A stretch of DNA of 16,422 nucleotides, from IMG/VR virus record IMGVR_UViG_2541047794_000004. One strand, 5' to 3'. Shown here in pieces: positions 236-9,717 of this stretch. The notes under the pieces were generated by a model. The model made no database searches. It saw only the letters and a program-made list of their open reading frames with translations, and had not been told where the DNA came from. A program made the translations under genes and the position numbers. Position 1 is the first letter of the stretch; each line of letters begins with the position of its first letter. This stretch comes from a virus (Duplodnaviria; Heunggongvirae; Uroviricota; Caudoviricetes).

Positions 236-451
236 AACCGCAGCACGTTCCTGCATACGACGTGTCTGCGGCATAATCCCAATGATTACTCCCTGACAGG
301 GTTTGCAGGCCACTCAATATCAGGTGCAGTTGATGTATCAACACGATTCAACAATACCCGATATTTATTCCATGCCTCCAGCAACGATCTTTCTTCCTCC
401 GTTGCGATTTCCAGATCTACAGCATCCTGCAGTGGCGCAATATACTCACTG
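236..451. repeat. Direct repeat copy A: tfa 3' coding end plus 3' UTR hairpin, roughly 90% identical to 1286..1500
   Basis: By-eye alignment of 236-451 with 1286-1500 shows long identical runs (e.g. ggcataatcccaatgattactccctgacaggg, ctcaatatcaggtgcagttgatgtatcaacac). Includes an imperfect hairpin at 238-271. Confidence 0.85.
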
Positions 452-555
452 AATTCCTGGATGTAGAACTGTGTGGTGACGGTCTTCCAGCCATTCGGCT
501 CCTGCTGTATCGAAGCATACCAGGCTATTTCAATATCGCTATGCTGCGGCAGCAT
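286..555 (-). CDS. Short Tfa-like protein (89 aa): C-terminal ~50 aa match the tail fiber assembly protein C-terminus, with a novel 35-aa N-terminus; possible remnant or short paralog
   Basis: C-terminus [52 protein letters not shown] is near-identical to the C-terminus of the 194-aa Tfa at 1335..1919. ATG at 553-555 with AGGGG 4 nt upstream on the minus strand. Confidence 0.55.
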
Positions 556-611: not shown

Positions 612-623
612 ATGGTGAAATCA

Positions 624-1280
624 ATGAAAAAAAACACAGATGATGGGGCTAAAATTTACACACCACTTACCCTAAAGCTTTATGACTGGTGGGTTTTGGG
701 AGTATCAAATCGGCTTGCATGGGGATGTCCTACAAAGGAACACCTTCTTCCACACTTTCTGGAACATGTAGGTAACAACCATCTGGATATTGGTGTTGGA
801 ACTGGGTTTTACCTTACTCACGTACCTGAGAGTAGTCTGATATCTTTAATGGATTTGAACGAAGCTAGCCTGAACGCGGCATCTACAAGGGCTGGGGAAT
901 CAAAAATTAAACATAAAATTAGCCATGATGTTTTTGAACCTTATCCCGCGGCGTTACATGGTCAATTTGATTCCATTTCCATGTTTTACCTTCTTCACTG
1001 CCTGCCTGGAAATATATCTACAAAAAGCTGTGTAATACGCAATGCGGCGCAGGCCTTAACTGACGATGGAACTCTATACGGAGCCACAATTCTTGGCGAT
1101 GGAGTTGTGCACAATAGCTTCGGTCAAAAACTGATGCGCATTTACAATCAGAAAGGCATCTTTTCAAACACAAAAGATTCCGAAGAAGGCTTAACACATA
1201 TACTCTCAGAGCATTTCGAGAATGTTAAAACCAAGGTTCAAGGTACTGTAGTAATGTTTTCCGCTTCAGGGAAAAAATAG
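624..1280 (+). CDS. Class I SAM-dependent methyltransferase (orphan, about 218 aa; alternative start ATG 612)
   Basis: Glycine-rich motif I LDIGVGTG, acidic motif II-like LMDLNEA, and DSISMFYLLHCLP / LTDDGTLYGATI segments typical of a Rossmann-fold MTase. GGTGA 5 nt upstream of ATG 624. Low GC relative to the tail genes. No DPPY/NPPY or PCQ DNA-MTase motifs seen. TAG stop at 1278-1280. Confidence 0.7.
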   Translation: MKKNTDDGAKIYTPLTLKLYDWWVLGVSNRLAWGCPTKEHLLPHFLEHVGNNHLDIGVGTGFYLTHVPESSLISLMDLNEASLNAASTRAGESKIKHKISHDVFEPYPAALHGQFDSISMFYLLHCLPGNISTKSCVIRNAAQALTDDGTLYGATILGDGVVHNSFGQKLMRIYNQKGIFSNTKDSEEGLTHILSEHFENVKTKVQGTVVMFSASGKK

Positions 1281-1285
1281 CATCC

Positions 1286-1500
1286 AACCGCAGCACGTTC
1301 TTGCTTAAGACGTGCTGCGGCATAATCCCAATGATTACTCCCTGACAGGGTTCGTAGGCCACTCAATATCAGGTGCAGTTGATGTATCAACACGGTTCAG
1401 CAACACCCGATACTTTTTCCAGGCTTCCAGCAATGAGGTTTCTTCCTCCGTTGCAATTTCCAGATCTGCAGCATCCTGAAGCGGCGCAATATGCTCACTG
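1286..1500. repeat. Direct repeat copy B: 3' end of tfa plus its 3' UTR hairpin
   Basis: See copy A; same orientation, roughly 90% identity over about 215 bp. Confidence 0.85.
1288..1320 (-). terminator. Hairpin downstream of tfa (perfect 11-bp stem ccgcagcacgt / acgtgctgcgg); possible bidirectional terminator between convergent tfa and the methyltransferase
   Basis: Perfect inverted repeat at 1288-1298 and 1310-1320. On the minus strand a T-run follows about 10 nt downstream (revcomp of gaaaaaatag), further than in a canonical intrinsic terminator, so function is uncertain. Confidence 0.45.
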
Positions 1501-1919
1501 GCTACCTGCATCAGGTTGTTTTTTGTTTCTTCCGCCTCCCGGATCCGGAACAGTTTTTCTGCTTCCGTATCCTTCACCCAGGCTGTGCCGTTCCACTTCT
1601 GAAACTCCCCTTCCGGCGATAACCAGGTAACATTTTCCGGTAACGGACCGAGTTCAGAAATAAATAACTCGTCCCCTGACGCTACGTCATAAACCGTTTT
1701 CCCCCGATGGTCTTCAACGAGATGCCACGATGCCTCATCACTGTTGAAAACAGCCACAAAGCCAGCAGGAATATCTGGTGGTGCAATATCGGTACTGTTT
1801 GCTGGCAGACCTGTATGAGGCGGAATATATGCGTCACCTTCACCAATAAATTCATTAGTTCCGGCCAGCAGATTATAAATTTTTATGGTCCGTGCTTGTT
1901 CACTCATTCTGAATGCCAT
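1335..1919 (-). CDS. tfa: Tail fiber assembly protein Tfa (194 aa)
   Basis: Translation [39 protein letters not shown]... matches my recollection of lambda Tfa (orf-194) along its length and has the same 194-aa size. ATG overlaps the stf stop (TAATG). Confidence 0.93.
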
Positions 1920-4900
1920 TATGCAAGCCTCACAATATAGTTAAATGCGATGTTTTTGACGGTGTTTTCCGCGTTACCCGCAGCGTTAACGGTGATGGTG
2001 TGTCCATGTGAACCAATCGCAACGGAGTGCGTATGCGCACCAATACCTACAGTATGTGCATGTGCGCCAGAACTTGCTGCAGTACCAGACAGCGAGTGGG
2101 TATGAGCACCTGCTGACTGTGTCTGAATACGTTGATAATACGATCTATAGGAAGAAGTCTCCGGGCTTACTTGATACTGTGAATTCTGGACATAAGTGAA
2201 CCCACCGCCATCATAAAATGCTAACGCAGAACCGCCGCCTCCTGGCCAACGAATACCATTACCATGAGTATGAACACCGGCAGACCCCGTAGAGCCACTC
2301 AGACTGTGCGTATGCGCCCCGGTGTTATTCGTGGATTTAGTGCCGTAATCAAACGACGATGTGGTTTTCGTCCCCAAATCCGTACTGGATGCGCTGGCGC
2401 TGTGGGTGTGCGATTTTATGCCGTCCTGTTCCTGAGACAATACGGCCCGGCCACTGGCGGGTTTGCCCTTAATCGTCCAGCCACGCATATCAGGGATCAC
2501 GCCTGACGGATAAGCCGCTGCAAGTTTCGGGTAGGCAGATTTGTTAAAAGTCTGCCCCTGCATCAGGGCATAACCAGACGGAACGGTATCTGATGGCCAC
2601 GGGATTGGTGCGCCAACTGGGTAGCTTTCTGGTGGAAGATTTTTCGAGGTATAAACTTCTGCCCAGTCTTCCTCAAAACCATAACCGTCTCTTGAAGAAC
2701 GGTAGAACAGACCACGATTTCTGTAATGCGCCTTCATCTGCAGGGTCCGGCAACTTCCGACTCCGGTATAGAAGTTAACCAGAATATAGCTGTCGCCAGA
2801 GCGGGCGACATTGTAAGCGCCTGATTCGGCATTCCAGGGAACGGCTCCATTCGAATCCGCATAAGCCCCCGTCGAACGTCGGGCAAATGCACCAATATTT
2901 TCCGGCGTGAGGTTAATATCCGCCGAGCCATCAAACTTAACACCGTTAATTTTTGGGGCTGCCGCAAGTTTCGTCGCGGTATCGGCGTTCCCCTTCAGTG
3001 CCCCGGTGATCCCATCAGTAACAGACAACGGACCTGAAATAGTCCCTCCAGTCGTTGGCAGCGCTCCAATATCTGATGGTGTAGGTTTCTGATGTGAGCT
3101 ATACATCGTATAAACAACACCACCGGTAACGCTGGAAGGCTTACTCGCTGAATATGTTGGCGAGGTATAAATAGAAACTGACGCATTTGCAGTACAATCC
3201 CAATGGATATTTACACTCGTCGCATAATTGCCAATCTCAACGTAAATATCATATGTATCGCCGGATGTGTTGATCCAGGCGAAATTCGTTAATCCGACGG
3301 CTGTACGCTTCCACAAAGCCCCGGTAATTCCTTTGGGGTTTCCATTGCCTGCTCGTAGAACCAGTTCTGAAATGCCTGCCTGATGTGGGGAACCGACGTT
3401 GTAACCAGCGCCACCAATCAATGCGATGTAAACGATGGAACTCGCTTGTGGCATGGTAACCGTTGCCAGTTTGAACCACCCAGCCCCGCCAGAGAAAGAG
3501 ATCGTTACTGAATTTAAAGTGCCAATATCTTTCGGTGTTAATGTTATATCCGCAGTCAGTGCTTTCCCGTTAACTTTTCGGTTAGATGGTACCCTGCCAT
3601 TCGCATTGTCATTCGCTGCTTTAACTGCCTTCGGTGTCGCGGCAAGCGTTTCAGATGTGATGTTGGTCGCACTGCTGAGCTGTACTATCCCCTTTTTCGT
3701 CGTACTTGCATCCTCAAGCGCCACGGCGGATGCAATATCCTCTGCCCGTTTTGCCGCTGTCTCGGCGCGCGTTGCCGCGGATTCCGCCGTACTTTTGCTC
3801 TGTGCTGCCGCCGTCGCACTGCCAGCTGCCTCTGTCGCCTTCGCGGATGCTGTCGTGGCGCTGCCCTTCGCTGCTGACGCCTGTCTGGTCGCCTCATCTT
3901 TTGAAGCAGACGCCGATGATGCCGATGACGCCGCCGAACTGGCGGACGATGCGGCAGCCGTTTTTGAGGATTCTGCGCTGGTCTCCGACGCTTTCGCGTT
4001 CGTCTCCGATGTCTTCGCTGCGGAAGCAGACCTCGCTGCTGCACTGGCCTGTTCAGTGGCTTCGCCAGCCTTCGTTGTGGCTGTTGAAGCGGACGATGCG
4101 GCGCTTTCTGCCGATTTTCCGGCGGCGCTAGCACTGGCTGAGGCCTGCCCGGCACTTGTTGACGCTGCACTGGCAGACGACGCAGCCGCTGTTTTTGAGC
4201 CTGCTGCTGCGGAGGCACTCTGTGCTGCTGCCGTTTCAGAGGACTTAGCGTTTGTCTCAGACGTCTTTGCCGCCTTCGCGGAATTTCCTGCCGCCGTTGC
4301 CGAGGAAGCGGCATTACTGGCGCTCGAGGCTGCGCTCGTTTCTGATAATTTTGCCGCCTCTTTTGAAGCCGACGCATCTCTGGCTGAGGTGGCTGCTTCT
4401 GACGCTTTCGTGGTCGCGGTGGATGCAGAAGTGGCAGCTGATTGTTGTGACGCTGCCGCATTCGTTTCTGACGTTTTCGCCGCACCGGCACTGGTGGCCG
4501 CCGCGCTTTTTGAGGACTCTGCAGCGGCAGCACTTTTTGATGCTTCAGTGGCCTTTGCTGATGCCGTTCCTGCGCTGGAAGACGCAGACTGAGCCGACGA
4601 AGCGGCCTGTCCGGCTGACGTGCTGGCTGCTCGTGCTGAGCCTGCAGCATCAGTCGCACGGGTTGCCGCCTCACGGGCTGATGTGCTGGCATCGCTGGCT
4701 GATTTCTTCGCGGCTGCCGTGTTCTGTGCCACCGCGGACGCGTTACGCGCCACCTCTTCCACCATCAGTTCAAAGCGGCGCAGTGCCTCAGGACGGGCAT
4801 CATCCTCCGTCATGGCACCGAGAAAATCATTCAGCGTACCGGGTCGGGAATCTTCATACACGGTGATGGTCCCGGCATGTGACGGCGGGAATCCTTCCAC

Positions 4901-5089
4901 CAACAGAATAACGCTGTACTGACCGTACTCAACGTCCATGCTGTAACGCCCGGCTTCATCCGGATTTTCTGAGGCCAGCGTGTTCACCACCACCGTGGTG
5001 CTGTTACGTTTTGCTTTCAGCTGGATTGTGCAGTTCTGTACCGGTTTTCCTGTGCCGTCTTTCAGTACACCTGAAATCTTTACTGCCAT
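1919..5089 (-). CDS. stf: Side tail fiber protein Stf, full length (about 1056 aa from ATG 5087-5089; track ORF starts at upstream GTG 5095)
   Basis: N-terminus [26 protein letters not shown]... and C-terminus ...[49 protein letters not shown] match lambda Stf as I recall it. Long Ala/Ser/Thr-rich repeat tract. [10 protein letters not shown] and [11 protein letters not shown] tail-fiber repeat motifs in the central part. Confidence 0.9.
3731..4744. repeat. Low-complexity Ala/Ser/Thr-rich imperfect tandem repeat tract inside stf
   Basis: Stf residues about 118-455 consist of recurring AKTSETNA(K/A)..., SASTATTKA(S/G)EA..., SAASSAS units. The same composition bias produces long spurious ORFs in the other frames (3435..4592 +, 3685..4692 -). 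Confidence 0.8.
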
Positions 5090-5100
5090 ATTCACCCCAC

Positions 5101-5127
5101 AAAAAAGCCCGCCTGAACCGGCGGGCT
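5101..5127 (-). terminator. Rho-independent terminator downstream of lom, just upstream of the stf start
   Basis: Stem gcccgcc (5108-5114) / ggcgggc (5121-5127) with a 6-nt loop; on the minus strand it is followed by a U6 tract (plus-strand A6 at 5102-5107). Confidence 0.7.
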
Positions 5128-5153: not shown

Positions 5154-5753
5154 TCAGAATTTATAACCGACACCAACGATGAAACTGTTGGTACGCCAGT
5201 CACCGCTGCCGGAGCCTTCATAAGCGACATCAACGGCCACGGATTCTGTCGGGTTAAACTGCACGCCAGCCCCCCACGCCAGAGACGTGTTGCTGTGGCG
5301 ACCGTCATCACTTCCGGTCAGCACATCGTGCGTTTTCCCCGTATTGTCGGTCACCTGCAGATAATCCCCGGAGAAAGTCGACACACGGCTGTAAGCCACA
5401 CCCGCCATCGCATACGCGCTGAACCATTCATTCACGCGCACAGACGGCCCCGCCATCACGCTGAACCAGCGGTTACGCACGGAATCTTCATGCCAGCGGG
5501 TATCGCTGTAATGCGTTTTTTGCTCATCTTCAGCGTTGGCATAACTGAATGACGTAATCAGCCCCAGCGTGTCCGTAAACTCATAACGGTATTTCACGTT
5601 AATCCCGTTCAGATTATCGCTGCCGGGAGCGTTCGTACGGGCATGAAGATACCCTGCGCTCAGTGTGGCCTGCTGCTCAGACGCCCATGCAGGCGCACCG
5701 GATACGGCCAGACAGATGGCTGCGGACAAAATGGCTGCACAAACTTTACGCAT
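5154..5753 (-). CDS. lom: Lom/Ail-family outer membrane beta-barrel protein (199 aa)
   Basis: N-terminal signal peptide [24 protein letters not shown]. Motifs [17 protein letters not shown] and the C-terminus [23 protein letters not shown] match lambda Lom as I recall it. Sits between J and stf as in lambda. GAGAGG RBS. Confidence 0.9.
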
Positions 5754-5777: not shown

Positions 5778-5801
5778 AAAAAAGGCACCATTTCTGGTGC
5801 C
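5778..5801 (-). terminator. Rho-independent terminator between J and lom
   Basis: Stem ggcacca (5784-5790) / tggtgcc (5795-5801) with a 4-nt loop; followed on the minus strand by a U6 tract (plus-strand A6 at 5778-5783). Confidence 0.65.
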
Positions 5802-5820
5802 CGTATCTGGGTTATAAAAT

Positions 5821-8800
5821 TCAGCTAATCGTGATGCCTGCAGTGGCTTTCTTCATCACCACAACCAGCAAATCGCTGATACTTGCTGTGGGATACCAGT
5901 TATTTACCAGCCATGCTGACACCGAAAACTCCAGTGTCATGTGACCGTGACCGGCAGGCATATCAATAACGCCACTGTAAATCAGCGTATTATCCAGCGC
6001 GGTACGGTTATAAATTTCAGCACCGTTTTTCCGCACTATCAGACGGCATGAGGAGTAAATATCAGTATGCTCTTTCTCATGTTTAGCGCCGCTGAATGCC
6101 ACCGCCGGAATAACAATCTGCCGGTCAAACGGCTGATCGTCATAAACCCTGACGGTAATGGTTCCTGATGGCCACCGCTCCGGTGCACGGGAGTCCCGGG
6201 GGAAAGCTTTGCCCACTGTTTTAACGAGATCGCCTTCAATCTGGTTCGCGGACAATTTTCCCAGAACCCGACAGTTCTCGTTAATCGTGACGTTGTTGAG
6301 CGTCCCGGAGTTCGCATTCACGTTACCGCTGATATCGGCATTTTTCGCCGTCAGCCGCCCGTCCGGTGTCAGGGAAAATGCCGGAGGATTACCGCCGCTG
6401 GTAATGGTGGGGGCCGTCAGGCGTTTCAGGAACACTTCATTCATGAATATCTGATCGCCCTGACCAACAAACATCGGCTTTGTGTTGCCATTCGCAGGAT
6501 TAATCATCGCAATCCTGTCTGCTGCCAGCAGCACCTGACTCTGCATGCCGTCAGGGGTGTTCTCAATACCGGCACCGATACCCGCAATATAAAGGCGTCC
6601 GTCCTGCATCTGCTGCAGCTTCACTGCCCACATGCTGTTCAGGTTATTATTTGTATCAACCTGAACCTTCTGTATCTGCTGGATCGCTGCACTCTGGTCT
6701 TCCAGTTTCTTATTGACGGTCTGTGTTATTTCATTGCTGACATCCGTTATGGACGTCCTGATTTCAGTCAGGTCAGGCGCAAGCTGACCGTTATCAATCT
6801 GCGTCCACAGCTCCTGAGCCAGATGGGTTTTCCCTATCTCGCCTTTGAAAAAATCCAGATAGCCTGATGCATCATCACTCGGCTGACCGACAGCCTCCAC
6901 GAATGCCGATTTGCCAACGGTGTTCACACTGCGAACGTAAAAATAATAATCATGGCCCGGTTTGATATTGATACTGGCGGCTATCCAGTACAGTGCCGTA
7001 CCAAGATAACGCGCGCTGGTTTCAACCTGCCTGATATCCGCAATCCGTTTTTCCGAGAACCAGAACTCAAACTGTACCGTCGGATCATAAACCGCAAGAT
7101 GCGGCGTGGCGGTTATCTGAAAATAGCCCGGCGTCAGCTCAATCCGCGACGGTGCTGCCGGTGCGGCAATCCGGAATGATACCGACGCCGGATCACCCTG
7201 CTGCCCCCAGGCATTTACCGCCCTGACTGTCAGCCTGTAGTTCCCCAGCGCCAGCTGCCTGAAGCGGTATGTGGTTTCCGTCGTCCGGGCCGTGCTGACC
7301 AGCCGCTCACTGCCGTCATCCGCTGTTACGGTCAGACGGAGCAGGAAGCTCACGCCCTTCACCACCTTCGGCGTGTCCCAGCGGGCCAGCACCTGATATT
7401 CCCCGCTGTCTGCGGTGACTTCGGCAGTCAGGTGCTGCACCGCTGGCGGCGTGACACCATTCACCGTGCCGCTCTGGTCGCCGTCAAAGTGCGCCCCGTT
7501 ATCCACGATGGCTTCTTTTTCCGGTACATGCTGCACGGCGGTGATGGCATACGTGCCGTCGTCGTTCTCACGGATACTCACGCAGCGGAACAGGCGCTGG
7601 CGCAGCGTCGGCAGCTTCAGCCCCCACACGCTGTATTCAGCAACGCCGTCAGGAACACGGCTCACTTTCACCTTCACGCCGTCGGTGACGGACTGGACCT
7701 CCACGCTGACCGGATTCCCCTGTCCGTCAACCAGGCTTATCAGCGTGGTGCCGGAGGATGGCAGCGTGATTTCACGGTCGAGCGTCAGTGTCCGCGTCTG
7801 GCTGTTCACCGCCAGCACGCGCCCGCCGATGCTGATACCCGCATAGTCATCATCACAGATTTCAATGACATCGCCCGGTACATGGCGAAGCCCTTCTGCA
7901 CCCACGCTGAAGTCCACGGTCTGCGTTTCCAGCAGCTCCGTTTTAATCAGCCACAGCCCGGCGCGGTGTGCCTGCCCCCGGCTGGTACAGCCAAAGGCAT
8001 CCATCTTCGTGACGTTACGACCGTAACGGAGAATGGCCTGCGTATCTTCAACAAGCTCTGTCGCCGTCTCCCAGCCGTTATTCGGGTCAATCCAGTTCAC
8101 CTCAACGGCATTATGGCGGTCCTTCAGGGCGCTGAAGCTGTAGCGGAACGGCGCGCCATCATCCGGCATCACCACATTACTGCGGTTATAGGTCCACACC
8201 TTATCCGACGGTCGGTCCTGCACGAACGTCAGCGTCTGCCCGTTCCATACCGGCATACAGCGCATCGCCGAGCAGAAATCACTGAGAACATCCCACGCCT
8301 TACGCTGTGTGGTCAGGTAGGCATTACAGGTGATGCGCGGCTCCGTGCCACCAAAGCCATCCGGCACTGACTGATCGCAATACTGGCCGATGACATACAG
8401 CGCCCATTTGTCCACATCCGCCGCACCAAGACGTTTCCCCATGCCGTAGCGCGGGTGGGTCAGCATATCCCACAGACACCAGGCCATGTTGTTGCTGTAT
8501 GCCGGTTTAAACGTCCCGTCCCAGATACCGTTGTATTGCCGCGTCTGCGGGTTATAGTTCGACGGCACCTGCAGAATGCGCCCGCGAAGATGATAATTAC
8601 GGCTCACCTGCTGGCTGCCGAACTGCTCCGAATCCACCTGCACGCCGACCAGTGCCGTGTTCGGGTAGCCCTGTTTCACATCGATGATTTCGGTGTATGA
8701 CGACCAGAGCGTTTTGTTCTGCAGCTGGTCTGTGGTGCTGTCCGGCGTCATCCTGCGCATCCGTATATTGAACGGGCGCGGCGGCAGGTTACCCACCACC

Positions 8801-9300
8801 ACCGAGGCCAGATACTGCGAGGTGGTTTTGCCCTTAATGGTGATGTCTTTTTCCGTCACCCAGCCACCATTACGTTGTATCTGAACCAGCAGGCGAACTT
8901 CCGACGGATTCCTGTCCCCCTTTGAGGTGGTTTCCACCAGTGCCTGCACACCGAAGGTAAAACGCAGTCGGTCAATGTTTGCCGACGTGATGGTCCGGGT
9001 GATCGGCGTGTCGTATTTCACTTCCGTACCCAGTACCGTCTCGGAACCTGATGATTCAAATCCCTCCGGCGGTGTCTGTTCCTGCTCACCTGCCCGGAAC
9101 ACCACCGTGACACCAGAGATGTTAGTATTCCCCTCACTGTCCAGCACCGGTGTACTGTTCAGCAGCACGCTTTTTAATCCATCCACCGGACCTTCAACCG
9201 GCCCTTCGCTGATGGCATCGATCACACTCAGCAGCTGCGTGGACTTCAGGTTGTCCCTCGCTTCGCGCGGGGTATGCCCCTTACTGCTTCCTTTACCCAT
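5821..9300 (-). CDS. J: Tail tip / host specificity protein J (1159 aa), central fibre and receptor-binding protein
   Basis: N-terminus [34 protein letters not shown]... and most of the length match lambda gpJ as I recall it; the last ~150 aa look divergent. GGAG 8 nt upstream of the ATG. Confidence 0.95.
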
Positions 9301-9366: not shown

Positions 9367-9705
9367 TTATTTACATGCATTAACACTATCAGCAAAAATT
9401 TTTGGCGTTAATGCTGGTACACGTTCATAAAGAGTAAAACTACTGCCATTTCCTGCTTTTTTGATATCAAGCACAACATCATATCCCCCCATAGCCTGTG
9501 GAACTAAAAGGCTTACCCCATTCTCAATAGGAAGGGATGTTATAGGTGTTCCATTACCAGCCCATTGTCTGGATATGCAGCCTGACAATTCATCAATATT
9601 TTTTAATGAATTACCTTCCATTACAGGTTTTCCGGATTTTACGTAATCCAAAGACTTACATCCTGTTAAGGCAATAATCGTGCAGAATAAAATCGTTTTG
9701 TTCAT
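9367..9705 (-). CDS. Predicted lipoprotein (about 112 aa) of unknown function; moron inserted between I and J
   Basis: Signal peptide with lipobox MNKTILFCTIIALTGC (L-T-G-C). Low GC. Promoter-like AT-rich upstream region and its own terminator. Track ORF begins at an upstream TTG (9717); ATG at 9703-9705 preferred. Confidence 0.6.
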   Translation of the reverse strand: MNKTILFCTIIALTGCKSLDYVKSGKPVMEGNSLKNIDELSGCISRQWAGNGTPITSLPIENGVSLLVPQAMGGYDVVLDIKKAGNGSSFTLYERVPALTPKIFADSVNACK

Positions 9706-9717
9706 ATAGCTAACCAA

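Follow-up and report, generated by a model that had tools for sequence, protein, structure and literature searches.

An intact, mosaic side tail fibre gene with a 50-heptad rod in a lambda-type Escherichia coli prophage

That lambdoid Stf proteins are mosaic, are homologous to fibre proteins of T4 (gp37), Mu and P2, and change host range by module swapping has been known since 1989–1994, and fibre module swapping now serves the engineering of lambda particles (PMC11338833, PMC9659904, PMC3945230). The DNA stretch of 16,422 nucleotides analysed here, in the following called the window, raises the question whether its side tail fibre gene stf is out of the ordinary: a first-pass annotation had described it as unusually long, with a tandem-repeat tract whose copy number could modulate the length of the fibre. 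In this study, we analysed the sequence, architecture and homologies of this fibre and its frequency in populations. The window Stf is a known kind of gene, i.e. an ordinary intact prophage side tail fibre. With a probability of about 0.88, we regard it as a functional-looking side tail fibre of a lambda-type E. coli prophage, an allele of a widespread StfR-like group that is mosaic with respect to lambda, its function being assigned by homology. It seems long and odd only beside laboratory lambda, because about two thirds of the complete E. coli genomes carry its long rod.

The stf gene and its surroundings

The stf coding sequence occupies positions 1919..5089 of the minus strand (1056 aa; stop codon 1919–1921), as given by the ORF list with its translation, by RefSeq and by Pfam (matches to PF08400, PF07484 and PF03335). 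It begins with an ATG at 5089; a GTG in the same frame precedes this codon by two codons, at 5095. The uninterrupted frame of 1056 aa reported by the first-pass annotation is confirmed by the ORF list and by an identical 3171-nt CDS in RefSeq (WP_021537919.1, 100% identical to the window protein), and the minus strand has to be added to that description; a plus-strand reading of 1919–5089 was rejected, as its translation consists only of stops. The exact protein is already present in NCBI on 144 contigs, and about 495 complete genomes contain a full-length match, with 95.5–100% identity among the matches listed.

The TAA stop codon of stf and the ATG of tfa overlap by one base. The tfa gene (1335..1919, minus strand) encodes a tail fibre assembly chaperone of 194 aa (PF02413, E 1.9e-44) with 94% identity to lambda Tfa; stf is thus directly followed by a dedicated chaperone gene of the Tfa/gp38 class, as in the gp37/Stf tip family. 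Upstream of stf lie lom (5154..5753, minus strand; Ail/Lom outer-membrane protein, PF06316, E 3.4e-125), which is its neighbour in lambda as well, and J (5821..9300, minus strand; 1159 aa, Pfam J-protein domains, named gpJ in RefSeq), coding for the central tail fibre or tip attachment protein. The gene order V-G-T-H-M-L-K-I-J-lom-stf-tfa is that of lambda, with stf after J and lom, tfa immediately next and all genes on the minus strand. In E. coli, the prophage adjoins an ompW remnant and the trp operon. Between lom and stf, a consensus scan predicted a terminator-like hairpin with a T-run (5106..5127, minus strand), the T-run stopping about 13 nt upstream of the stf start codon. Expression of stf is therefore presumably dependent on Q-type antitermination.

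The gene might instead be an intact but idle relic of a defective prophage or serve a role on the host side, e.g. by interfering with the adsorption of other phages. The closely related StfR of E. coli K-12 (b1372, 1120 aa) is located in the cryptic prophage Rac, a second fibre module has left a tfa fragment and a DUF4376 pseudogene next to the window fibre gene, and a PinQ-driven inversion of cryptic prophage DNA is reported to inhibit T2 adsorption (PMC12529663). However, none of the neighbouring head and tail genes is disrupted in the identical RefSeq locus, all tail ORFs of the window match their Pfam families over the full length, and the stop/start overlap between stf and tfa has been kept. 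Moreover, Rac has the invertase gene pinR downstream, whereas neither the window nor the annotated identical RefSeq locus contains an invertase gene, and the search for crossover sites gave a single near-match to the core, inside a methyltransferase gene, which is no more than expected by chance. An invertible fibre system of the Mu G, P1 C, e14 P or Rac/Qin Pin type was rejected on the same two results. Taken together, a relic or host-side role is unlikely, and a functional-looking side tail fibre is the preferred reading.

Architecture, periodicity and length of the rod

For comparison with lambda, Ur-lambda Stf (774 aa), which corresponds to orf-401 plus orf-314 of lambda PaPa, was rebuilt from J02459 by putting back one C, and aligned with the window protein, which is 282 aa longer. 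Identity is 92% over aa 1–108. This part includes the N-terminal tail-attachment domain (aa 1–94; 4808..5089, minus strand), called the StfN 'collar' domain in the lambda structure, which was recognised by PF08400 (E 1.4e-71, profile positions 1–134 of 134 covered) and by the lambda tail fibre N-domain in PDB 9e7m/9mgh (E 1.9e-51). In the rod, aa 109–303 are 83% identical, followed by a segment missing from lambda (aa 304–408; 3866..4180, minus strand) that comprises 105 aa or exactly 15 heptads, and then again by 83% identity over aa 409–490. The subsequent 333 aa (aa 491–823) stand in place of about 156 aa of lambda, namely its hinge and distal shaft (aa about 386–541), to which they are unrelated: a forced alignment gave only 31 identities, and BLAST gave no match. 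Residues 824–1056 are lambda-like except for a divergent segment (aa 943–993) and two short deletions. On the DNA level, similarity to lambda is interrupted at aa 303/405, 490 and 826. Lambda thus shares the J-lom-stf-tfa locus, the N-domain, a homologous rod and the collar/needle tip family, and the description of the fibre as having lambda-like termini, a longer repeat tract and a different centre holds.

The proximal rod (aa 109–465; 3695..4765, minus strand) consists of about 50 uninterrupted heptads of the form S-A-x-x-A-x-x; the A/S/T-rich tract proper covers aa 112–464, in agreement with positions 3731–4744 as first annotated. The heptad register is unbroken across aa 109–465, with Ala at one core position in 47 and at the other in 35 of the 49 heptads. 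In the autocorrelation of the rod, residues spaced by a multiple of 7 had an identity of 0.41 compared to 0.20 for all other spacings, and the difference never exceeded 0.034 in 500 shuffles. Lambdoid Stf proteins have an alpha-helical coiled-coil rod behind a short linker, and in the domain map of lambda Stf the region homologous to the window rod is modelled as a trimeric coiled coil (PMC12617516). Judged by its residue pattern, the window rod is an Ala/Ser-core heptad coiled coil, which by analogy with the lambda model would be a helical trimer.

The DNA of the rod does not form a tandem array. Most direct repeats are spaced by a multiple of 21 nt, with a weak 21-nt autocorrelation, and TRF returned no array from the window rod but merely a 25-nt, period-9 match; as a positive control, the same program found an array in the rod of an E. 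ruysiae relative (period 189 × 2.3 copies). Repeat copies and families are 60–78% identical, and the longest exact direct repeat has 14 nt. Protein self-BLAST of the rod gave no off-diagonal matches, the autocorrelation being the informative test here. The tract is therefore repetitive as a 7-aa (21-nt) periodicity and not as a DNA array, and on the TRF and repeat-identity results the DNA tandem-repeat reading was dropped for heptad periodicity.

With regard to its frequency, the 50-heptad rod was present in 86 of the 98 IMG/VR fibres in which rod length was measurable between two anchor motifs. At a threshold of at least 80% coverage, 3657 out of the 5426 complete E. coli genomes contained the extra 315 nt (aa 304–408), compared to 97 with a contiguous lambda-type short junction, which belonged mostly to laboratory strains among the eight matches listed. 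StfR of K-12, 92% identical to the window protein over aa 1–493, has the same rod length, and the same 1056-aa architecture occurs in E. albertii. Among 95 complete IMG/VR relatives, the median Stf length is 1008 aa, and 40% have at least 1056 aa. The attribute 'unusually long' is therefore correct only relative to lambda. This corrects the frame of reference: it is lambda Stf that represents an atypical short form in the rod (35 versus 50 heptads) and is atypical in the needle as well, and the window has the architecture that prevails in E. coli.

Other rod lengths of about 31, 34, 35 and 36 heptads were also seen, as were an in-phase deletion of 16 heptads between SETNA repeats (relative L135) and one +4 stutter (relative L027). 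Rod length falls into few discrete, mostly in-phase classes and is not hypervariable. The idea that variation in repeat number tunes fibre length is only weakly supported: other lengths do exist, but the in-phase classes are few, and high-identity DNA repeats, which would favour slippage, are missing from the window rod. In its strong form, this idea would make the rod a hypermutable contingency locus, at which slippage or unequal exchange often changes the copy number of tandem repeats and so adjusts the fibre between strains. The 21-nt periodicity, the several length classes in the family, the L135 deletion between two SETNA repeats and the true DNA tandem repeats of the E. ruysiae rods would fit such a locus. 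Against it, high-identity head-to-tail DNA repeats were not detected by TRF in the window rod, whose copies share no exact repeat beyond the 14 nt given above; the 86 IMG/VR fibres, K-12 StfR and E. albertii retain one rod length at 5–10% sequence divergence; copy-number polymorphism among close relatives of the window rod was not found in these three sources; and the full-length matches in E. coli genomes are in single pieces among the matches listed. For the window allele, a contingency locus is thus largely refuted and highly improbable. A recent lineage-specific expansion from a lambda-like ancestor, unusually long in one strain, would explain the 282 additional residues including the rod insertion, but it is refuted by the population counts and by the lengths of the relatives, and lambda is the outlier in needle length as well (8 HxH motifs versus 7 in 96 of 106 distinct tips).

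Distal modules and tip

The rod is followed by a conserved junction (aa 466–513; 3551..3694, minus strand) with a motif of 22 residues and then one of 18 residues, which is common to Mu fibre protein S (PDB 5yvq/8ju3; GxVQLxSAT..ETLAATxKAVK, domain E about 1e-5). The departure from lambda starts inside this junction at aa 491, the DNA similarity stopping at aa 490. Module A (aa 514–695; 3005..3550, minus strand) is a putative all-beta knob inserted in the shaft and occurs as an independent unit in many tail-fibre proteins, sometimes in tandem. Its AF2 model of moderate confidence (pLDDT 68.7, pTM 0.63) has 10 beta strands, and the best Foldseek matches of this model were tailspike-like proteins with weak scores (TM about 0.5); a beta-sandwich is suggested, and the model was used for no more than the designation 'all-beta knob'. 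Module B (aa 696–823; 2621..3004, minus strand) combines an 18-residue motif with a Mu S'-like domain, aa 731–819 being homologous to tail fiber protein S/S' (PDB 8ju3, domain E about 1e-20), and is an independent unit in other fibres, too. In contrast to the window fibre, Mu fibres have neither a PF08400 N-domain nor a long coiled coil or a gp37-type tip, and Mu switches S/S' by G inversion. StfR differs in its middle part (about aa 494–765), where the window has Module A; from Module B through collar and needle, the overall identity is 77%, with almost no differences except in the head, where its segment is shorter and unrelated. As in the window, a tfa gene comes next.

In the comparison with T4 gp37, proposed as a check at first reading, PDB 2xgf matched over aa 821–1056 (E 1.9e-81), and PF07484 (Collar) was detected with E 6.4e-12. 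Collar and outbound needle strand (aa 824–942; 2264..2620, minus strand; three HxH motifs) share 81% identity with T4 and 90% with lambda; for the return needle strand with the C-terminus (aa 994–1056; 1922..2110, minus strand; four HxH motifs), the values are 75% with T4 gp37 and 89% with lambda. The seven HxH motifs are located at aa 894, 926 and 940, then at 996, 1010, 1019 and 1028, and the His-rich motifs GAHTHS and GAHAHT, already noted before, as well as SHGHT are all present. The T4 gp37 tip has seven HxH motifs, too, with Fe coordination in the needle (PMC12609058). It shares the collar, the six-stranded needle and the head with the window tip, and the two needles are equal in length, with indels in the head only. 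Outside of the final approximately 236 aa of the window Stf, the two proteins are unrelated, and the window fibre is connected to a siphovirus tail via its coiled-coil rod, unlike that of T4, which is connected via gp34–36. The lambda needle is longer by a 10-aa FDYG unit and a 9-aa HxH unit. Such a paired gain, one unit on the outbound and one on the return strand, would suggest that needles grow or shrink by whole layers.

Between the two needle strands, the head segment (aa 943–993; 2111..2263, minus strand) is divergent, matching T4 at 12 of 32 aligned residues and lambda, which has a different head segment, at 10 of 43; with 51 aa, it is longer than the T4 head of about 33 aa. It aligns to T4 residues about 932–964, and T4 host-range mutations at residues 938–955 lie within this stretch (PMC5221442). 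Because it is divergent and coincides with the T4 host-range residues, these 51 aa are the probable main determinant of receptor specificity. The same head segment was also found on fibres with another central segment (L009, L038), and this head variant is present in 720 of 5426 E. coli genomes versus 2 of 50,697 phage records. In 62 IMG/VR relatives with a 99–100% identical N-domain, the modules for knob, middle, collar, head and end are combined in many ways. The distal half of Stf has clearly been put together by recombination from known tail-fibre modules, as the earlier suggestion of a mosaic tip had implied.

A model of the assembled fibre

Lambdoid Stf proteins form trimers, with four fibres per virion, and accelerate adsorption. 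For the window fibre, we infer trimeric state, dimensions, assembly, metal (Fe) binding and receptor function by homology. On the pattern of Ur-lambda Stf and T4 gp37, the Tfa chaperone would help three chains to assemble into one fibre, whose N-domains (aa 1–94) would dock it on the tail tip. The coiled coil of about 357 residues and 50 heptads would then form a rigid proximal rod of about 53 nm, about 15.5 nm longer than that of lambda (105 aa with a rise of roughly 0.148 nm each). Via the conserved junction, this rod would pass into a distal shaft of two portable modules, the beta-sandwich knob and the Mu S'-like domain, and the chains would end in a gp37-type collar, a six-stranded needle with seven HxH layers and a small head. 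The head at the far end would be the first part to bind, reversibly, to an outer-membrane receptor, with specificity residing mainly in the divergent 51-aa segment. In relatives, the receptors are OmpC, OmpF or the LPS core, and tips of the gp37/Stf family bind OmpC, OmpF or LPS through the head. We attribute the differences from lambda to exchange, either homologous or illegitimate, at the conserved motifs of the junctions (aa 490/491 and 823/824), and the difference in rod length to in-phase gain or loss of heptads.

As a tentative and rather doubtful extension, the fibre could have two specificities, the head binding a receptor other than OmpC of K-12 and the knob making a second, glycan contact along the shaft, with the in-phase rod classes setting the reach through O-antigen or capsule. 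For lambda itself, the receptor of the side fibre is OmpC (PMC12617516). The domain map with rod, junction, two shaft modules and head could guide the design of chimeric fibres and the prediction of the receptor of this common, uncharacterised head variant. Regarding its distribution, a scan of GTDB species representatives yielded few true relatives, all of them from Escherichia/Shigella, and many of the matches were due to lambda DNA contamination in unrelated assemblies.

Side tail fibre gene and its comparison with Ur-lambda Stf

The stf reading frame is uninterrupted and encodes 1056 aa, as the first-pass annotation had proposed; it lies on the minus strand and extends from the ATG at 5089 to the TAA at 1919-1921. 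The plus strand at 1919-5089 contains numerous stops. The tail genes V, G, T, H, M, L, K, I, J, lom, stf and tfa, all on the minus strand, have the canonical lambda arrangement. J (5821-9300) is followed by lom (5154-5753), located between J and stf, and tfa (1335-1919) lies directly 3' of stf, the stf stop codon and the tfa ATG overlapping by one base. An identical locus was found in E. coli AR_0017, where the fibre is named WP_021537919.1 in RefSeq ('prophage tail fiber N-terminal domain-containing protein') and the prophage, whose genes for head and tail are intact, adjoins an ompW remnant, yciE/F and the trp operon.

For comparison, the 774-aa Ur-lambda Stf was rebuilt from J02459 by restoring one C, thereby joining orf-401 to orf-314, and both proteins were mapped onto each other using protein alignment, identity counts and DNA HSPs. 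Identity to lambda is 92% for aa 1-108, 83% for aa 109-303, 83% for aa 409-490, 90% for aa 824-942 and 89% for aa 994-1056. The 105 residues at aa 304-408 have no lambda equivalent, at aa 491-823 a segment of 333 aa stands in place of ~156 unrelated lambda residues, and aa 943-993 are divergent. Lambda-like termini (aa 1-108, 824-942 and 994-1056), the motifs GAHTHS and GAHAHT in the tip, an Ala/Ser/Thr tract longer than that of lambda and a differing central segment, all previously noted, were thus recovered, and neither the repeat length nor the central domain proved to be the same as in Ur-lambda. The earlier statements on the sequence were all correct.

We assign a probability of about 0.88 to an intact fibre resembling StfR, the homologue in the K-12 cryptic prophage Rac, and working as that of Ur-lambda. 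The first contact with a receptor in the outer membrane, rapid and reversible, would be made by a gp37-type head, the head would be carried on a coiled-coil rod of 50 heptads, and the fibre would be folded with Tfa, which is 94% identical to lambda Tfa. That stf is instead an idle relic or has a host-side role appears improbable.

Nature and length of the Ala/Ser/Thr rod

The tract had also been described as a tandem-repeat tract, and at the DNA level this did not hold. Tandem Repeats Finder (TRF) reported nothing in the window rod beyond one 25-nt match of period 9, direct-repeat families are only 60-78% identical, with spacings that are multiples of 21 nt for most, and the longest exact direct repeat comprises 14 nt; a DNA tandem repeat is thereby ruled out. 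Rods of E. ruysiae and Escherichia sp. (contigs L085, 5498-5969, and L091) served as positive control, as TRF detected real tandem repeats in them (periods 21, 42 and 189; 83% matches). These rods contain many KTSETNA heptad pairs and lead to a different, non-gp37 distal end.

At the protein level, the tract follows a heptad strictly: the strongest autocorrelation lags are without exception multiples of 7, with a mean identity of 0.41 at such lags versus 0.20 at others (largest difference in 500 shuffles 0.034), and the pattern S-A-x-x-A-x-x continues in register from M109 unbroken to about residue 465, i.e. for ~50 heptads. Ala occupies the two core positions in 47 and 35 of 49 heptads, and Ser the position preceding them in 37. 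A study of Ur-lambda by cryo-EM, cryo-ET and AlphaFold3 assigns the homologous region (residues 102-393) to a trimeric proximal coiled coil. On its N-terminal side are a linker and a docking domain (1-91); on its C-terminal side, a hinge (394-422) is followed by a distal coiled-coil domain (423-525) and then by the receptor-binding domain, which binds OmpC (PMC12617516). The difference of 105 aa corresponds to exactly 15 heptads, and the register is therefore kept. With a textbook coiled-coil rise of ~0.148 nm per residue, the extra residues would add roughly 15.5 nm.

The exact 1056-aa protein is already present in NCBI, UniRef and ENA (144 contigs), at least 8000 homologues were scored, and ~495 complete E. 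coli genomes contain a full-length match (95.5-100% identical among the full-length matches listed). Two N-domain scans of IMG/VR yielded 95 complete fibres with a median length of 1008 aa (interquartile range 942-1120, maximum 1258), 40% of them having at least 1056 aa. Rod length, taken as the distance between the flanking anchors MVEEV and GIVQLS, was measurable in 98 fibres: 86 have 358 aa, 10 have the 253 aa of the lambda type, and one each has 246 and 362 aa; another 13 fibres with other distal ends lie outside this set. Of 5426 complete E. coli genomes, 3657 contain the 315-nt 'extra' segment (coverage ≥80%) and just 97 a contiguous lambda-type junction, the eight examples listed of the latter being mostly laboratory strains, e.g. 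J53, BLR(DE3) and C43(DE3). The rod of the window recurs in Rac StfR (1120 aa; 92% identical over aa 1-493, no gap), and the E. albertii species representative shares the 1056-aa architecture. Because of these length, rod-distance and genome counts, StfR and E. albertii, it is lambda that is the short outlier in rod length, and the fibre cannot be called unusually long. A hypermutable repeat locus is highly unlikely, as both the DNA data (TRF, repeat identity) and the population data contradict it, and a lineage-specific expansion is refuted by the genome frequencies. The stf gene is an ordinary, already catalogued one, described correctly before, which appeared odd because laboratory lambda was used as yardstick.

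In the wider family, rod length varies in a few classes: ~31 heptads (L059 and L142, fibres with a different distal end), ~35 (L154, L161, L131), 36 and ~21 (two E. ruysiae fibres) and ~15 (a distant Shigella fibre). In the IMG/VR fibre L135, 16 heptads were lost cleanly in phase between two 'SETNA' repeats, the ORF ending at 388 aa, and L027, otherwise window-like with 1055 aa, has a 4-aa 'STSA' insertion forming a coiled-coil stutter. A change of fibre length through unequal exchange is thus supported in principle by the length classes, L135 and the E. ruysiae repeats, but the window allele is stable and not polymorphic.

Two further long ORFs cover the rod DNA, one on the opposite strand (3435-4592, plus strand, 385 aa) and one in a different frame (3685-4692, minus strand, 335 aa), and resemble 'orf206b' annotated in lambda. 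Most likely, they are not genes and arise because the periodic sequence is rich in GCN/AGC and poor in stops.

Modules of the distal half

Known modules make up the distal half in mosaic fashion, and PHROG matches along the whole protein are to tail-fibre families. Among 62 IMG/VR fibres with the same rod and a 99-100% identical N-domain, many segment combinations follow after residue ~490, and fibres of 1137 aa whose centre differs (L009, L038) carry the head segment of the window as well. The breakpoints relative to lambda, aa 490/491 and 823/826, are located at the edges of conserved motifs in protein alignment and DNA HSPs, which fits recombinational exchange at shared motifs. Such exchange in stf-type genes has long been described (Montag 1989; Haggard-Ljungquist 1992; Sandmeier 1992, 1994; all cited in PMC3945230), and engineered lambda-P2/K1F/K5 Stf chimeras make use of it (PMC11338833). 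A search for an inversion system of the Mu G/Pin type revealed no invertase in the window or the identical annotated locus and no crossover site above chance.

The central 333-aa segment (1607 cluster representatives at E ≤ 1e-3, 138 at E ≤ 1e-30) consists of two units found independently, at times in tandem, in other fibres. Module A (aa 514-695), for which no solved structure with a sequence relationship was found, was modelled with AF2 from a 12-sequence alignment as a ten-strand all-beta domain at moderate confidence (pLDDT 68.7, pTM 0.63). Its best Foldseek matches were tailspike-like proteins, namely WceF (6tgf) and Acinetobacter phage tailspikes (TM about 0.5), and we read from model and matches only a putative 'beta-sandwich knob'. 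In module B (aa ~680-823), an 18-residue motif is accompanied by a domain with homology to the S' fibre of phage Mu (8ju3, domain E about 1e-20), and the 21-residue junction motif matches Mu S (5yvq).

The tip (aa 821-1056) matches the crystal-structure sequence of the T4 gp37 tip (2xgf) with E 1.9e-81. Collar and outbound needle are 81% identical to T4 and the return strand 75%, but in the head segment 943-993 no more than 12 of 32 aligned residues agree. This segment aligns with T4 residues ~932-964, the head domain, for which the host-range mutations G938V, T939I, V941E, G943S, Y953 and A955E are known (PMC5221442). The T4/lambda tip family with its variable 30-70-aa specificity region has been described already (PMC9659904); 720 of the 5426 E. 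coli genomes contain the head variant of the window, but only 2 of 50,697 phage records do.

Seven HxH motifs are present in the window tip, three outbound and four in the return strand. The T4 needle also has seven, with Fe coordination along the needle (PMC12609058), whereas lambda has eight. According to TRF, lambda contains an added copy of a 30-nt (10-aa) FDYG unit, outbound, and an added 27-nt (9-aa) HxH unit in the return strand (3342-3410 and 3653-3722 in L001, i.e. lambda, versus 2264-2620 and 1922-2110 in the window), both missing in the window, StfR and T4. The seven-motif arrangement was found in 96 of 106 distinct tips collected, that of lambda only in lambda-type fibres. This paired gain suggests that the lambda needle may be longer by one layer and that length changes in whole layers, the events being few and non-independent.

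Flanking genes and lambda DNA in other assemblies

Two terminator-like hairpins with T-runs flank lom on the minus strand (5783-5802 and 5106-5127), the T-run of the latter ending ~13 nt short of the stf ATG. The pair would fit lom as a self-contained 'moron' and a dependence of stf expression on antiterminated late transcription. A small ORF (9367-9717, minus strand) between I and J, an 84-aa hypothetical protein in RefSeq, is not known to have a counterpart at that position in lambda.

Downstream of tfa, a class I SAM-dependent methyltransferase is encoded on the opposite strand (612-1280, plus strand), followed by a C-terminal tfa fragment (286-555, minus strand; PF02413) and, beside it, a DUF4376 pseudogene annotated in RefSeq (~1-189); the ompW remnant lies beyond the pseudogene, outside the window. 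The content of 1-1280, including tfa fragment and pseudogene, looks like the remains of another fibre module at the prophage end.

The lambda stf allele was also observed on low-coverage GTDB contigs (L087-L102, L105-L107), several of them about 48.4-48.5 kb long, from assemblies of Pseudomonas, Shewanella, Leeuwenhoekiella, Oceanobacillus, Neobacillus, Desulfosporosinus, Kitasatospora and other unrelated organisms. This looks like contamination of sequencing libraries with lambda DNA; the allele on L087 is orf-401 of lambda PaPa, frameshifted and 401 aa long.
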